Source of the DNA: an uncultured Acidobacteriota bacterium
Lineage (GTDB): Bacteria > Acidobacteriota > Thermoanaerobaculia > Gp7-AA8
Length of the DNA stretch: 64,000 nucleotides
NCBI GenBank assembly: GCA_963822445.1
Contig: CAWGHO010000003.1
Coordinates: 1,440,001 to 1,504,000 of the forward strand
Reading direction: 5' to 3'
Made by a program: the position numbers and the translations under genes. The notes under the pieces are model-generated. The model was not told the origin of the DNA and made no database searches. It saw only the letters and a program-made list of their open reading frames with translations. Shown piece by piece: positions 3,123 to 25,683 of the stretch. The first letter of the stretch is position 1. Every line of letters starts with the position of its first letter.

Positions 3123-5569
3123 TTACCAGCCGATGCCGAGGTAGGCGAGGGCGCGGCGGCTGAGCAGGTCTCCGCCGAAGGCCTCGTAGTGCTCGTTATC
3201 CAGTGCGTTGCTGACGTCCACACCGACCTTGAACATGTCGCTGATGTTGAAGTTTCCGGCCACGTTCACGACGCCGTACGTGGGAACCGTTCCAACGAAC
3301 ACACCTGCCGCCCAGTCGAACCCTTCGACCCAGCGGTAGGAAACCTTGCCGTCGAACCGCGAGCTGCGGAACGAGAGACCGGCGTTGAACTTCTGCTCCG
3401 GCGCGTTCGGGAGGAGACGGTCGCCGATGCGCTGCGTCCCTTCCTTCACCTCGAAGTCGAAGTGCGAGTAGTTCGCCTCGAGCACCCAGTTGTTGGTGAG
3501 GTAGTAGTTCACCGCGATCTCGGCGCCCTGCGTGTCGACCTCACCGGCGTTCGTGTACGAGAACACCAGGGCCGGCGAGCCGCCGACGGTGGTCAGGCCG
3601 GCCCGGTTCGCACCGAGCGCGGTGGTGAGGAACTGGTTGATGCCGCCGACGACCGCGCCGGGGATCGGTGTGCCGTTGGGCAATGTGGTCGGAACGACGT
3701 AGGCCGCGAACGCCTCGTTCGCGCCGGGGAGAAGGTCGGTCACGAAGTCGCTGAGGAAGCTCTTGTAGACGTCGACGGTGAGGAACACCTTGCCGCCGAA
3801 GATGCCGGCGTAGCCGATCTCGTGGCTCTTGACCTTTTCCACGACGAGATTGGCGTTGCCGCGCGCCAGAAGCGGCAGCGAGCCAAAGCCGAGCTGGTTC
3901 AGGAACGGCGCGAGGGCCGCGGCCGCGGGATTGGCGGCAGCCGCCGCGGCGAGTGGAACCGGCGCGCCGGCCGGAGCGGTGAGGAAGAGCTCCGAGTAGT
4001 TCGGGCGCTGGAAGGCTTCGTTGTAGCCGTAGCGGACGTTGTGGTTGGTGTTGATCGAGAAGACGATCGCGCCTTTCGGCGAGAACTGCGCCTCGTGCAG
4101 CGTCGAGTCGTCCCAGCGCGCGGCGCCGACGAGCTTGATCCGGTTGGACAGATCGAACTCGGCCTGGCCGAACACGGACTGCTGGGTCTCATCGTGCGGA
4201 ATCGGCCATCAGCGTGCCCAGGCCGGTGTTGGGGTTGGTGGTGTCGACTTCCTGTTCGTTCCAGGCGACGCCGCCGACGAGGCGGGTGCGGCCGCCCATG
4301 AAATCCCAGTTGGTCTGCAGCTCCGCGTGCATGTTGCTCGAGTCTTCGTAGAGAGGGGCGCCGGAGGCGAGGGCGACCTGGTTCTCGGCGACGCGCGCGT
4401 CGTAATACGCGCCGATGTTCCAGTGCGGCATGTTGTAGTTGACGCGGGCCCAGGGGCGCTCGACGTCGGTCACCTGCACGCGGCCGATACCGGTCTGGAA
4501 CACGGGACCTTCCAGCGTCGCGTATCCACCTTCGACGGTGAAGACGTTCGAGTTGGCGAAGTGCTTGTCGAAGCGGAGGCCGCCGAACTTCACGTTCACT
4601 TCCTCGAGCGCGAGCGGACGCGCTTCGCGGCGGAGGCAGTTGATCGCGCTGGTCGTGGCGCAGGGGACGGTGTACTCGACGGTCAGCATTGCGCGAGCGG
4701 GCGAAGTCGCCGCTCTGCGCGTAGCCGCCGACGAGGCGGTAATACCACTCGCCGCCGAGGCCGCCGGCGTGACGGAGATCGGCGCGCTTGGTGTCGAGAT
4801 CGCCGGCGCTGAGCAGCAGGCGTCCGCCCACGCTGTCGCGCGGCATCTTGGTGGTCATGTTCAGAACGCCGCTGAAGGCGTTCGCGCCGTAGAGCGCCGA
4901 TCCCGGACCGCGGATCAGCTCCACGCTCTGCATCTCATCGAGGGGGAAGGAGACCGCGCCCCATTCCTGTGCGCCGAGGAAGGCGATGGCGGGGTCGCGG
5001 CCGTCGATGAGGGTGAGGATGCGGCGGTTCAGCGAGCTGTTGAAGCCGCGGGCGTTGAAGTTCGTGTCGTAAAGACCGCTCTGGGTGAAGTCGACGCCGA
5101 CCGCGTTCTCGATGATGCGCGGGGCCTGGCCGGACGAGGCCACGGCCTCGATGTCTTCCTGGGCCATGACCGTGACGGCCGCCGGCGCTTCGACGACGCG
5201 CTCGGTGCGGCGCGAGGCGGAGTAGACGGTGATCGTCTCGGCGATGGACAGGCGCCAGTCGACCTGCTTGTCGACCCGCGTGGTCCCGCCGTCGGTGACG
5301 ACGACGTTGCTCTCGGTCGTGGCCTGGTCACCGGCCACGAGATTGAGCGTGTACGTTCCGGGCGGGACGTCGAAGCTGAACGAGCCGTCGGACTCGGTGG
5401 TGATCGCCCGCGAGAGCTCGACGATCTGCACGATGACGCCACCGATGCCGGTGCCGTCGGTGCGCGTGATGCGGCCGGCGATGCGGCCATTGGCGGCGAG
5501 CACAGGGACAGCCGCAAGGATCAGGATAATTAACAGGCACAGGACTCGGACGGAGCGCCGAAAGGCCAT
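3123..5569 (-). CDS. TonB-dependent receptor with N-terminal carboxypeptidase-regulatory-like domain (frameshifts near 4690 and 4200)
   Basis: Signal peptide, ETITVYSASR TonB-box region, plug motifs (RGFNS, LIDGR, VELIRGPGSALYGANAFSGVLN), beta-barrel C-terminus ending in W; coding is split over three ORFs. Confidence 0.85.
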
Positions 5570-5633
5570 GACAAACCCTCCCTAGAACGTATTCAGGACC
5601 AGTTGGTTACGATCGGAGGAAGGTAGCACAAAA

Positions 5634-5726
5634 GATTGATGATTGATGAGTGATGATTGATGATTGTCCGTCCGTTGGCCGCGTCCGATGAACCCTTCAT
5701 CAATCATCAATCATCAGTCATCAATC
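5634..5726. repeat. Inverted tandem heptamer element (GATTGAT)n ... (ATCAATC)n
   Basis: About 4.7 copies at 5634-5666 and 4 complementary copies at 5699-5726. Confidence 0.9.
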
Positions 5727-21609: not shown

Positions 21610-22761
21610 TCACTTTTTGCGCGTCAGCAACACCGCAAAAACAGCGGCGAGCGCGAGCGCTGCACCCGTGAAAAACGCGGCGTGCCGCGATACATGTTCG
21701 TAAAGCAGACCGAACAACGCCGTTCCGAGGAGCACACACAGACCGTTGGCGAGGTAATAAATGCCGAAGCTTTTTCCGCGCACATCCGCAGGGACGAGAT
21801 CGGCAATCCAGGCGCGCTCCGCACCTTCGGCGAGCGTGAACGGAATCGCGTAAAGAACGAACAGCACGAAGAACGAGGTCAGCGATTGCGCAAAGGGGAA
21901 CGCGGCGTAAATGACGGCGTAAGACGTCCACCCCGCGACCAGGAGCCACCGCCGGTCGACGCGATCAGACAACGCACCGGCACGCGTGGAGAAGAGTGAC
22001 TTGATCACGTGATGCGACGCCCACAGCAGAGGCAGCATCGCCGTGGTCACTCCTGCTGCATGAGCCTGAAGCAGCAAGAACGCGTCGCTCGAGTTCGAGA
22101 GGGAGAAAAGCGCGACGGCGGTGATCGCGCCGCGAAAAGAAGCGGGGAGCGCCGGTCCACCGATGACTTTCGAGGGTTCTTTCGGTTTCGAAGTGCGCGG
22201 CACTTCGCGGAGGAAGAACGCCAGCATGGCCGCGCCGATCGCGCCGGGAATGACCGCGAAGAGAATGGTCTGCTTGAGCGAGAAGCCGAGGACCTGCAAA
22301 AGCAACAACGCCAGCAGGGGACCGATGATCGCGCCGGTGTGATCGAGCGCGCGATGAAAGCCGAACGCGCGTCCGCGCTGATCGTGCGGGGTGACGTCGG
22401 AGATCAACGCGTCCCGCGGCGCCGATCGAATGCCTTTGCCGGTGCGATCGAGCAGCCGAGCGAAGAGGACGAGCGGCCACACGGTCGCCGCCGCAATGAG
22501 CGCGCGCGACGCCGCCGCGAGACCGTAGCCGCTGACAATGAAAGGTTTCCGCCGCGGCATGCGATCGGACCAGGCCCCCGCGAAGTATTTGAGGATGGAG
22601 GAGAGGCCGTCAGCCGCACCCTCGATCAACCCGAGCACCGCCGGGCTCGCCCCGAGCGTCGCCGTGAGGAAGATCGGCAGGAGGGGATAGATCATCTCGC
22701 TCGCCGAGTCGTTCAGCAGCGCGGCGAGGCCGAGGAGGATGACCTGCGGCTTGAGCTTCAC
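21610..22761 (-). CDS. MFS transporter
   Basis: About 12 TM; ND..SEMIYPLLP, GAWSDR..RRK, DRTGKGIRSAPRDALI; GTG start at 22761. Confidence 0.9.
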   Translation of the reverse strand: MKLKPQVILLGLAALLNDSASEMIYPLLPIFLTATLGASPAVLGLIEGAADGLSSILKYFAGAWSDRMPRRKPFIVSGYGLAAASRALIAAATVWPLVLFARLLDRTGKGIRSAPRDALISDVTPHDQRGRAFGFHRALDHTGAIIGPLLALLLLQVLGFSLKQTILFAVIPGAIGAAMLAFFLREVPRTSKPKEPSKVIGGPALPASFRGAITAVALFSLSNSSDAFLLLQAHAAGVTTAMLPLLWASHHVIKSLFSTRAGALSDRVDRRWLLVAGWTSYAVIYAAFPFAQSLTSFFVLFVLYAIPFTLAEGAERAWIADLVPADVRGKSFGIYYLANGLCVLLGTALFGLLYEHVSRHAAFFTGAALALAAVFAVLLTRKK

Positions 22762-22787
22762 GCGGGGAATGGTAAGGGGGAACGACG

Positions 22788-22911
22788 AGGGGGCCTCCGG
22801 CGGGCCGGCCACGGGCCGGCAGGCGCTGGTTGTGCCTTCTGCCGAACTCGCGGTAGCTAGCGCGAATCGCGTTCACGCCAACATCAGCGCTGCCGGCCGT
22901 GGCCGCCCGCC
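22788..22911. repeat. Long imperfect inverted-repeat element; the outer right arm lies beyond the IS at 24450-24462
   Basis: 22799-22833 pairs with 22881-22911; AGGGGGCCTCCGG (22788-22800) is the perfect inverse of 24450-24462. Confidence 0.7.
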
Positions 22912-22959
22912 TATAGCTTGTCCGGCCGTCTCTCCGCTTCTCCCTCAGCCCTCAGAGAA

Positions 22960-23165
22960 GTACCCGTTGGGTGGCAATCGGGAGAATCGGATTCAGGCGG
23001 CGCGATACTGAGAAGAAGGGTTCGTCCCGCTACGAATTCCGCCCGTGTTCGGATCGACGAATCCCTCCGGACTTTCGAGCGGGACGAAGTGCTTTGGCCC
23101 GAAACGCATTCTCAGATGCTGTCGGAGCACGACTCGACTATAGGCCTTGCGCGCGGCCAAAGCCA
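22960..23165 (+). ncRNA. Putative IS110 bridge RNA
   Basis: Two large stem/internal-loop domains (23021-31/23078-88; 23091-99/23155-63); 23064-23072 is the reverse complement of the right insertion flank 24448-24456. Confidence 0.6.
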
Positions 23166-23182
23166 ACCGAAGGGAGGGTGTG

Positions 23183-24427
23183 ATGAGCGAGTTCGAGTTT
23201 GGGGCGTTGGTGGGGCTGGATTGGGGTGACACATCGCACGAGGTGGCTCTTTGGGACGAGCAGCAGCAGACGTGCACGAACGAGCGCATCGAGCACACGC
23301 CTGCGGCTCTGCGCGCATGGATCGAAGCGCTGCAGGCGCGCTTCGGCGGGGCACCGATCGCCGTGGCCATCGAGCAGTCCCGCGGCGCGGTCTTCGACGC
23401 GCTCAGCGGCTATCCGTTCGTCACGTTGTATCCGATCAACCCACGCAGTGCAGCCCGGTATCGTGAGGCGTTTCATCCGAGCCTATCGAAAGACGATCCG
23501 ACCGACGCGGCGTCCTTGCTCGACCTGCTTCGTAAGCACCGCAACGAACTGCGCCCGTTCATCGCCGACGACGCTTCTACGCGTCTGCTGCGGCTTCTGA
23601 CCGAGGATCGGCGCGAGCTCGTCGATCAGAGGACGCAACACGTCCAACGCATGACCGATCGGCTCAAGACGTACTACCCGCAGGCGCTCCGGTGGGCCGG
23701 CGCGTTGATTACGGCGCAGGCCTGTGACTTCCTCGAACGCTGGCCGACGCTCGAGGCCATCCAAAGGGCTCGGCCGTCCGCGATACGGAGGTTCTATGCG
23801 GGTCATCATCACGCGGCCGCGTGGATCGACCAGAAGCTCGCCGAGATCCGTTCAGAGGTCGCGTTCCACGACGATCAGGTCACCACTGACGCTGCCGTGC
23901 TACTGATCGGAAGCGAGGTTGCGCAGATCCGGGCCCTCAACACGAGCATCGCCACGTACGACCAGAAGATCTCCGCGGCGTTCGCCGCCCACCAGGACGC
24001 GTCGATCTTCGCGAGCTTCCCTGGCGCCGGCCAACAGCTCGCGCCGCGGCTCGCCGCCGCCTTCGGGACCGATCGCAAGCGCTTCGGCAGCGCCGTCAAC
24101 GTCGCCACCCGAAGCGGCATCGCCCCGGTTCTCCGCCGGAGCGGCAAAACGGCGGTCGTGCACATGCGCTGGGCCTGTCCGAAGTTCCTGCGTCAGACGT
24201 TCCATGAGTACGCCCGCGTGTCGATCGGTCAGTCCGTATGGGCTCGAGCCTTCTACAAGCAGCAACGCCTGCGCGGACACAGCCACCACGAGGCTATCCG
24301 CACGCTCGCTTACCGCTGGATCCGCGTCCTTTACGCCTGCTGGAACAATCGCACCGTCTACGACGAAGCTCTCTATCTGCGGCAGCTAGCCACGCGAGGC
24401 TCAACCCTCGCCACAGCTGCTCCCTGA
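23183..24427 (+). CDS. IS110 family DEDD recombinase/transposase
   Basis: VGLDWG, AIEQ, INP, KDDPTDA (DEDD); FPGAG, SGIAPVLRRSG; GGGAGG RBS. Confidence 0.95.
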   Translation: MSEFEFGALVGLDWGDTSHEVALWDEQQQTCTNERIEHTPAALRAWIEALQARFGGAPIAVAIEQSRGAVFDALSGYPFVTLYPINPRSAARYREAFHPSLSKDDPTDAASLLDLLRKHRNELRPFIADDASTRLLRLLTEDRRELVDQRTQHVQRMTDRLKTYYPQALRWAGALITAQACDFLERWPTLEAIQRARPSAIRRFYAGHHHAAAWIDQKLAEIRSEVAFHDDQVTTDAAVLLIGSEVAQIRALNTSIATYDQKISAAFAAHQDASIFASFPGAGQQLAPRLAAAFGTDRKRFGSAVNVATRSGIAPVLRRSGKTAVVHMRWACPKFLRQTFHEYARVSIGQSVWARAFYKQQRLRGHSHHEAIRTLAYRWIRVLYACWNNRTVYDEALYLRQLATRGSTLATAAP

Positions 24428-24474
24428 CTTGACAGGAAGGCTCAGATGTCCGGAGGCCCCCTGGTCGGTTCCCT

Positions 24475-24762
24475 TCAGCAACCGCCCACGCGAGACCAAA
24501 CCGACACGACACCATCCACATCGAGCCGCAGCGTGTCGCCGTCGACCCGATACGGCACGACGATCTCCGCTTCCGCCGGGAGGATGAACAGGCGGTCGCC
24601 ATCCTCCTCACACTGGAAGCGGCTGCGGCCGAGGATGAGAGTGTCGTCGCCGAACACGATCGTCTCGTCACCGTTGCGCCAGGTACCCGTCAAGTCTCTG
24701 CGCATGAAGTCCATCTCGTCTGGATAGTGACGATCGAGCAGTTTTCGTTTCAAACGGTCCAA
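24475..24762 (-). CDS. Small beta-rich hypothetical protein (start uncertain)
   Basis: LTGTW...Y.VDGDTL.L lipocalin-like pattern. Confidence 0.5.
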   Translation of the reverse strand: MDRLKRKLLDRHYPDEMDFMRRDLTGTWRNGDETIVFGDDTLILGRSRFQCEEDGDRLFILPAEAEIVVPYRVDGDTLRLDVDGVVSVWSRVGGC

Positions 24763-24798
24763 GTAGAATGCGCCCGCATTTCGAAAGGAGTCTCGCAA

Positions 24799-25683
<885 letters not shown>

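Follow-up and report, generated by a model that had tools for sequence, protein, structure and literature searches.

The window analysed here is a stretch of 64,000 nucleotides from an uncultured Acidobacteriota bacterium (assembly GCA_963822445.1, contig CAWGHO010000003.1, positions 1,440,001 to 1,504,000 of the forward strand), whose genome comprises three contigs totalling 6.0 Mb. At 22912-24451 the window carries an insertion sequence (IS) with one long open reading frame (ORF), set into one arm of a palindrome resembling repetitive extragenic palindromic (REP) elements. Judged from its sequence, this is very probably a canonical IS of the IS110 group, the left end of which would specify a bridge RNA used by a 414-aa DEDD/Ser recombinase for insertion into REP-like palindromes. 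A first-pass annotation of the same DNA had already recognised an IS110-family element with a two-loop bridge RNA in its left end, and that identification stands; the element's ends and how several guides are read have had to be redrawn. The main parts of the locus are the following:

22912-24451, plus strand: the insertion sequence, 1540 bp including the right copy of the CC core (equivalently 22910-24449), delimited by its copies, by empty sites and by relatives.
23183-24427, plus strand: the recombinase gene, 414 aa (alternative GTG start at 23180), the sole long ORF of the region, recognised by PF01548, PF02371, NF033542 and a fold match.
24428-24451, plus strand: the right end, with a candidate -35 box TTGACA at 24429-34, the left donor CTCAGATGT at 24441-49 and the right copy of the CC core at 24450-51.

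The two non-coding ends are markedly unequal, the left measuring 271 nt (22912-23182) against 24 nt on the right (24428-24451).

Copies, empty sites and the ends of the element

A genome-wide comparison recovered nine full copies of the IS, which are 96-100% identical and 1540-1541 bp long (1541 bp in seven), two of them being 100% identical to each other at different loci. Every full copy starts with TATAGCTT and ends with AGATGTCC, and the junction bases are the same throughout. The 41 nt to the left of 22951 are identical in 9/9 full copies, and all ten matches to this 41-mer in the genome, with up to three mismatches allowed, adjoin the IS; farther left the sequence differs among copies, while always forming a long palindrome of one kind. 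The right flank starts with GGAGGC in all nine, followed by the reverse complement of the outermost left arm. Palindromes of the same genome that lack the IS join GCCCGCC directly to GGAGGC, and exact counting gave CCGCCCG+CC+GGAGG (CCGCCCGCCGGAGG) eight times and CGGCCCG+CC+GGAGG (CGGCCCGCCGGAGG) 32 times, about 40 empty sites in total. The CC core occurs once in each empty site and is present at both junctions of the occupied site, at 22910-11 and 24450-51. Since the 41-mer is found only with the IS, and since empty sites join GCCCGCC to GGAGGC, the element runs from 22912 to 24451 with a CC core.

Relatives in six other assemblies (82-89% protein identity) have the same start and end bases and lie within palindromes with unrelated loops, and the form of the right terminus, CTCAG-N4-core, is conserved over lineages. 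The IS has no long terminal inverted repeats of its own, the inverted repeats that flank it being part of the target palindrome.

The first-pass annotation had placed the boundaries at a pair of CTCAGA hexamers. These are indeed present (22951-56 and 24441-46), but the true ends differ from them, the proposed ones lying 39 nt off on the left and 5 nt off on the right: the intervening 41-mer is specific to the IS, the empty sites contain no CTCAGA, and the left hexamer is not conserved in relatives, reading CTTAGA in L015 and CCCAGA in L019. The practical lesson is that a palindromic repeat around an IS110 element can mislead about where that element ends.

Fragments amounting to two rearranged copies of the IS also lie in the window's genome, at C3:469341-470836 (L010, L012, L014) and C1:940362-941426 (L011, L013). 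One has an internal inversion of roughly IS nt 375-539 and three in-frame TGA codons; the other is made of two partial copies whose interiors are joined head to head.

The recombinase

The 414-aa product matches PF01548, the N-terminal RuvC-like DEDD domain, at residues 10-166 (E 1.3e-28) and PF02371, the C-terminal Tnp domain (E 4.7e-11), and its ORF is intact in 9/9 full copies with all catalytic residues kept. All 18 sequences of an alignment share the predicted catalytic residues D13, E64, D105, D108 and S320, which correspond to D11, E60, D102, D105 and S241 of IS621 (chain numbering is offset by 2, S241 being chain residue 243), whose roles are described in the available excerpts of PMC11208158. 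Serine 278, in an S-x-P-G-x-G motif, was considered as the catalytic serine and rejected, the IS621 alignment placing that residue at S320.

When the 18-sequence alignment was turned into a profile and compared with solved structures, ISCro4 (E 4e-17) and IS621 (E 1.4e-16) were retrieved; a single-sequence search gave only a weak match to ISCro4 (E 3.5e-4), IS621 being reached by the profile alone. An AlphaFold model (predicted local distance difference test, pLDDT, 88.0; predicted template modelling score, pTM, 0.81) was then matched by Foldseek to chains of IS621 and ISCro4 in all of its top 10 results (8wt6, 8wt9 and 9t56 being the best), with E about 2e-12, a target-normalised template modelling (TM) score of 0.73-0.76 and 16-19% identity. 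An extra stretch of about 75 residues, for the most part helical, separates the two domains.

Anatomy of the predicted bridge RNA

According to the excerpts available of PMC11208160 and PMC11208158, a bridge-RNA loop reads on its 5′ side like the top strand left of the core, and on its 3′ side as the complement of the top strand, starting at the core and running rightwards; the core itself forms part of the guides. Each 3′ guide is followed by two bases termed handshake guides, which pair with the partner DNA once strands have been exchanged. Laid out in this way, the left end contains the following parts, all on the plus strand:

22918-23020: the 5′ leader of the predicted bridge RNA, which appears as a long hairpin in the fold and contains the internal CTCAGA at 22951-56.
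23021-23088: the target-binding loop module, with a basal stem 23021-31/23078-88, an inner stem 23033-36/23074-77 and an apical stem 23047-51/23058-62.
23039-45: the target 5′ guide (LTG), CCGCCCG, equal to the left target 22903-09 (7/7).
23046: U, the base after the LTG, facing the first core base; with the opposite G it makes a wobble at the first core C.
23064-70: the target 3′ guide (RTG), CCTCCGG, the reverse complement of CC+GGAGG (7/7).
23071-72: the target-loop handshake, AC, which can pair with GT at 24448-49, the donor dinucleotide immediately ahead of the core.
23091-23163: the donor-binding loop module, with a basal stem 23091-99/23155-63, an inner stem 23105-08/23148-51 and an apical stem 23121-24/23135-38.
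23111-18: the donor 5′ guide (LDG), CTCAGATG, equal to the right end at 24441-48 (8 nt).
23138-44: the donor 3′ guide (RDG), CTATAGG, the reverse complement of CC+TATAG at 22910-16 (7 nt).
23145-46: the donor-loop handshake, CC, of which the first base, C23145, can pair with target G22909.

Much of this had been glimpsed before the ends were known. Both basal stems had been described, and are present as such, the first being a perfect 11 bp; CCTCCGGAC (23064-72) is, as had been stated, the exact reverse complement of GTCCGGAGG (24448-56), and this 9-nt match is now explained, as it spans handshake, core and right target. The handshake AC is unable to pair with the target's own CG (22908-09), an arrangement that the excerpts of PMC11208158 report to favour strand exchange. 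Where the 5′ side of the first loop had been compared with the left flank, through TCCGCCC (23038-44) and TCAGCCC (22945-51), a match at 6/7 positions does exist; given the true left end at 22912, it falls within the IS rather than in a flank, and is coincidental. The apical GGAT/ATCC hairpin once drawn in this loop is not in a conserved register, and covariation instead backs the pairing of TTCG (23048-51) with CGAA (23058-61), in which a covarying pair is CG in eight sequences and UA in three. The donor match of the second loop, thought to be weak, is strong with corrected ends, covering 8 nt of the right end and 7 nt of CC+TATAG at the left end. Finally, a greater distance between guides and core than that seen in IS621, and perhaps a longer core, had been proposed, whereas the true ends put them against a 2-bp CC core in the IS621 geometry.

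The octamer CTCAGATG occurs twice in the window against 2.2 occurrences expected from shuffling, the two being the LDG and the right end; with a count no higher than the shuffled one, the signal resides in the placement of the two copies and not in their number. Likewise, the minimum free energy fold of the whole left end is only mildly better than those of shuffled sequences (z = -2.1), so that support for the structure comes from covariation and not from energy. The leader varies in length among relatives, with the left end 47-181 nt ahead of the start of the covariance model described below. Two relatives (L028 and L033) contain extra DNA in the leader, about 140-200 nt upstream of the target loop and between the left end and the loop, which indicates that the leader tolerates large insertions.

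Guides and flanks across the family

A scan for protein relatives yielded 75 loci at 35-89% identity, and a covariance model was built from 11 left ends. Run on 68 sources, the model matched 62 times, finding the RNA directly upstream of the ORF, and 60 of these matches lay on the plus strand. In an alignment fitted to the model, 94.9% of cells were paired and double changes were seen in 24/31 pairs, while a control in which the partners were slid by 1-3 columns left 30-42% paired.

The relation of loops to flanks, which the first-pass annotation had put forward as a check to be made over homologous copies, was examined for both target guides. For the RTG, 19 distinct 7-mers were available from 42 loci with enough downstream DNA, and the 350 nt after each ORF were searched. 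An exact complement was found in 12/19 cognate comparisons as against 10/342 non-cognate ones, and each of the 12 lies right after the CTCAG-N4 terminus. For the LTG, the cognate left target matched at a mean of 6.0 of 8 positions, with at least 7 in 14/29 cases, two of the 29 rows being invalid through spurious left junctions (the contigs of L017 and L018 begin inside the IS); the non-cognate mean was 3.35 of 8, with at least 7 in 8/812. The left junction could be located from the RDG in 27/29 loops, the other two belonging to contigs that begin inside the IS. The windows of L035 were shifted by one base in these guide-flank tests, and the right end of L059 was mislocated in the comparison of LTG, handshake and promoter. 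The RTG result lies far beyond chance, and the earlier assignment of the first loop as the target-binding one is upheld.

Both target-loop handshake bases match the donor in 8/13 lineages, and the first handshake base of the donor loop agrees with the target in 9/13. The final two bases of RTG and RDG change jointly between lineages (GG/GG, AG/AG, AT/AT, AC/AC and TT/TT), as is required if both guides read one shared core.

Single lineages illustrate the same pattern. Relative L020 has CGGCCGCC in LTG and target alike, where its sisters have GGCCCGCC. Copies from Vicinamibacterales show ACCTCCC, ACCTCGC or ACTTCGC in guide and target alike, and their RTG is complementary to CC+ATGCC and not to CC+GGAGG.

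Some of these relatives occupy sites of a different nature. Those in Vicinamibacterales metagenome-assembled genomes (MAGs; L021-L033, 51-53% identity) interrupt genes for Ser/Thr protein kinases, within the part coding for the glycine-rich loop: the DNA flanking L032 (189-2255, minus strand) encodes a Pkinase domain from profile position 13 (E 1.5e-48), and other Vicinamibacterales copies lie within short kinase-like fragments. In these loci the bridge RNA would thus have as its target a conserved coding motif shared by the members of a multigene family. A further Vicinamibacterales copy, L026 (1944-2255, minus strand), lies within a gene for a Mutator-family transposase (PF00872, E 1.2e-17), and its LTG has the matching base change, ACTTCGC as against ACCTCGC. 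In Aliiglaciecola (L046), two identical copies of the bridge RNA, at 2308-2466 and 5532-5690, lie 3.2 kb apart, which suggests tandem IS copies. Gammaproteobacterial loci L046, L047, L048, L059, L068 and L073 have CT before TATAG at the left junction and GT before TGTTA at the right junction, so that the first core base differs between the junctions of the same element.

The target palindrome and the choice of site

The surroundings of the IS are accounted for by four features:

22776-22911, no strand assigned: the left part of the REP-like palindrome serving as target, with outer and inner left arm at 22776-22828, the loop, and the inner right arm at 22885-22911.
22903-22911, plus strand: the left target CCGCCCG (22903-09) with the left copy of the CC core (22910-11), recognised by comparing occupied with empty sites.
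24452-24473, no strand assigned: the right target GGAGG (24452-56) together with the palindrome's outer right arm, which is the left outer arm (22776-22797) in reverse complement.
22793-22805, minus strand: an unoccupied twin target in the other arm of the same palindrome, an exact match to the 13-mer of the empty sites.

The IS sits in one arm of the palindrome, and the left target lies within the 3′ arm of the inner stem. The palindrome differs among copies while the IS is nearly identical. Relative to the IS, the palindrome loop points one way in four copies and the other way in four, the remaining copy having a short form; both orientations are expected, given that a palindrome offers one target per strand. 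All ten left junctions read C[C/G]GCCCG, with C in three and G in seven. Genome-wide, CCGGAGGC occurs 523 times, and the two commonest other left-side classes in front of it, AGGTAGG (41 times) and AGGCAGG (38 times), contain no IS junction, which indicates that the right half alone does not attract the IS and fits a need for the left guide.

In the REP-like palindrome family the arms measure about 50 nt and the loop about 55 nt, and roughly 40 intact arms bearing the target are present genome-wide. A second palindrome family, with 20 sites, has GGCCGCC in place of GCCCGCC, and is the target of relative L020. The neighbouring ORF for a 400-aa membrane protein (21610-22812, minus strand) has its listed start inside the left arm of the palindrome, and its true start is probably farther in; the IS separates this gene from an upstream 107-aa ORF (24475-24798) on the same strand as that gene.

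A candidate junction promoter and the proposed cycle

22912-22917, plus strand: TATAGC, the candidate -10 half of a circle-junction promoter, matching the consensus at 4/6 positions, with no T at position 6.

Were the right end joined to the left end, TTGACA (24429-34) would be followed after 17 nt by TATAGC, and the hexamer in the right end does, as had been pointed out, face the RNA after circularisation. A -35-like box is found 16-18 nt ahead of the left end in 11/13 lineages. A promoter scan of the integrated locus returned no sigma-70-like site on the plus strand upstream of the RNA; its rule demands a T at position 6 of the -10 box, so that the junction promoter could not be called by it either.

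Transcription of the RNA, formation of a circle and RNA-guided recombination are supposed here by analogy with the IS110 family. The element would excise as a circle, and the promoter assembled at its junction would transcribe the left end. The RNA would fold into a leader and two internal-loop modules, with CUCAGAUG of the donor loop pairing with the right end and CUAUAGG with CC+TATAG of the left end. Strands would be exchanged at the CC core, after which the two bases past each 3′ guide may pair with the partner DNA, namely the target-loop AC with donor GT and the first donor-loop C with target G22909.

Weighing the alternatives

A number of observations weigh against a bridge RNA guiding this recombinase into its palindromes. 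On the protein side, the NCBIfam model NF033542 ('IS110 family RNA-guided transposase') is passed only marginally, at 141.2 bits against a cut-off of 140. On the RNA side, an Rfam 15 scan of 22500-24900 returned chance-level matches only (E 0.8-6), far under the gathering scores and none of them in 22912-23180; the pair counts given above lean towards the structure, the alignment (A2) having been fitted to the model; and the putative -10 box lacks its T at position 6. Seven of the 19 RTG lineages have no exact match downstream, some of them showing a wobble or a single mismatch instead. The LTG faces the core with U, G and not C, C, that is, with a wobble in the first position and a mismatch in the second; in the LDG, donor T24449 is faced by C and the first core base by U; and one mismatch between left target and LTG is found at 7/10 occupied sites. 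A 16-mer spanning the joined junction has no match in the assembly, as is expected of an assembly. Among the public sequencing runs searched for the element, no RNA run is listed as containing the sequence, and the best-matching DNA run held 0.19 of the sampled words, as contigs only.

The imperfect guide positions are what an explanation by decay would draw upon. In such a scheme the element is a bridge-RNA IS by descent whose lineage is now inactive, its core-facing LTG and LDG positions having drifted, as the UG that replaces CC in the LTG and the two non-matching core-adjacent positions of the LDG might suggest; sister elements have better-matched core-facing guide positions, the LTG of relative L016, for instance, ending in CC. 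We regard this as unlikely in view of the two 100% identical copies at different loci and the nine intact ORFs with all catalytic residues. The first core-facing base is moreover still able to wobble-pair, and a mismatch is reported to be tolerated at left donor (LD) position 7 of IS621 in the excerpts available of PMC11208160.

It is very improbable that the left-end RNA is a leader regulating expression of the transposase, with the protein picking its target by the REP hairpin. The target is indeed a structured, GC-rich hairpin, and a target stem-loop is reported to add specificity in ISPpu10 (excerpts of bioRxiv 10.64898/2026.03.19.712850), but loops change with flanks over lineages whose targets are quite unalike, among them a REP element and a Ser/Thr kinase gene, and this is not predicted of an RNA that is only a leader. 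The hairpin may contribute structurally in addition to base pairing.

Hardly any weight is given to a larger composite unit in which the REP-like arms are terminal inverted repeats and palindrome and IS move together. The palindrome occurs about 40 times in the genome without the IS, its loops and arms differ among IS copies that are themselves 96-100% identical, and its loop lies in either orientation (four, four and one short form), which accords with insertion into either of the two arms; the relatives from other genomes are moreover found in palindromes with unrelated loops. All this outweighs the outer arms 22776-22797 and 24452-24473, which do form inverted repeats around every copy.

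An element of 22951-24446, bounded by CTCAGA as a long core or target duplication with guides reading flanks farther off, has next to no probability left and is refuted by the IS-specific sequence 22912-22950 (invariant among copies and absent elsewhere in the genome), by empty sites that join GCCCGCC to GGAGGC with no CTCAGA, by the mutated left hexamer of relatives and by the right hexamer belonging to the conserved donor terminus that the donor loop matches, even though CTCAGA does occur at both places and the loop does match 22945-51 at 6/7.

Distribution and significance

The closest relatives of the palindrome-inserted, bridge-RNA element of the window come from Thermoanaerobaculia and Vicinamibacterales MAGs. 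At E <= 1e-50 the element was found in 3/18 other genomes of the genus and 0/12 further genomes of the class that were searched, a patchy distribution which fits a mobile element. An 82% identical IS (L020, in a record labelled as a Longimicrobiales MAG) lies inside the second REP family that is also found in the window's genome; this suggests either transfer between phyla or a mis-binned 1.9-kb contig.

What is particular to the present element is its CC core, 7-nt RTG, contiguous RDG, long leader and distance in protein sequence from the solved examples. The chances appear evenly balanced that the lineage constitutes an active bridge system occurring in nature and far removed from those characterised so far: its protein, with an additional helical insert of about 75 aa, is 16-17% identical to IS621/ISCro4; a CC core and a 7-nt RTG are combined with a contiguous RDG and a built-in handshake; and it belongs to a clade with a variable core (CC, CT, AT, GT and AA) matched in both 3′ guides. 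If so, such recombinases would be free of the CT core that limits IS621, and could be orthogonal to existing tools. The lineage, or elements with a CC core, may already be present in published supplementary tables.

The knowledge of how the IS110 family works is not changed by this element. Its value is that of a cleanly resolved bridge-RNA element from a little-studied group, whose ends, target, donor, handshake bases and candidate junction promoter are all legible in the genome data by themselves, and of possible raw material for bridge recombinases with other core preferences.

Comparison with known systems

The gammaproteobacterial relatives (loci from Colwellia, Psychrosphaera and Algibacillus) have the same RNA architecture at 38-41% identity, below that of the acidobacterial relatives, and their RTG is complementary to CTTGTTA. 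CTTGTTA is the published target of IS492 (Pseudoalteromonas atlantica, IS110/IS492 family), to which these relatives are presumably linked.

Among the solved structures, ISCro4 (9t56) is the best sequence match, and its fold is shared with a TM score of 0.75-0.76. The protein is nevertheless equally distant, at 17-19% identity; the comparison with ISCro4 concerns the protein.

ISPpu10 of Pseudomonas putida, a member of the IS110 group, inserts only into REP copies, according to the excerpts available of bioRxiv 10.64898/2026.03.19.712850, and its left target is complementary to upstream sequence, so that the target DNA can form a GC-rich stem-loop. The present element shares the REP target, with its left target in the 3′ arm of the inner stem of the palindrome, and differs in having a CC core where that of ISPpu10 is CT.

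The fullest parallel is with IS621 of E. coli (8wt6-8wt9). The available excerpts of PMC11208160 and PMC11208158 describe for the IS110 family a REP target, a 2-bp core, a left-end bridge RNA, a junction promoter and handshake bases. The element of the window shares with IS621 the same domain pair with aligned DEDD and Ser residues, a left-end bridge RNA with the target loop ahead of the donor loop, a 2-bp core inside the guides, 5′ guides that read the bottom strand and 3′ guides that read the top strand, a handshake after both RTG and RDG and a REP-element target; a promoter at the circle junction, as in IS621, is predicted here. In contrast, its protein is only 16-17% identical by structural alignment and comprises 414 aa with about 75 extra helical residues, as opposed to a 328-residue chain; its core is CC and not CT; its RTG has 7 nt instead of 4; its RDG is contiguous where that of IS621 is split; and a leader of about 100 nt precedes its target loop.

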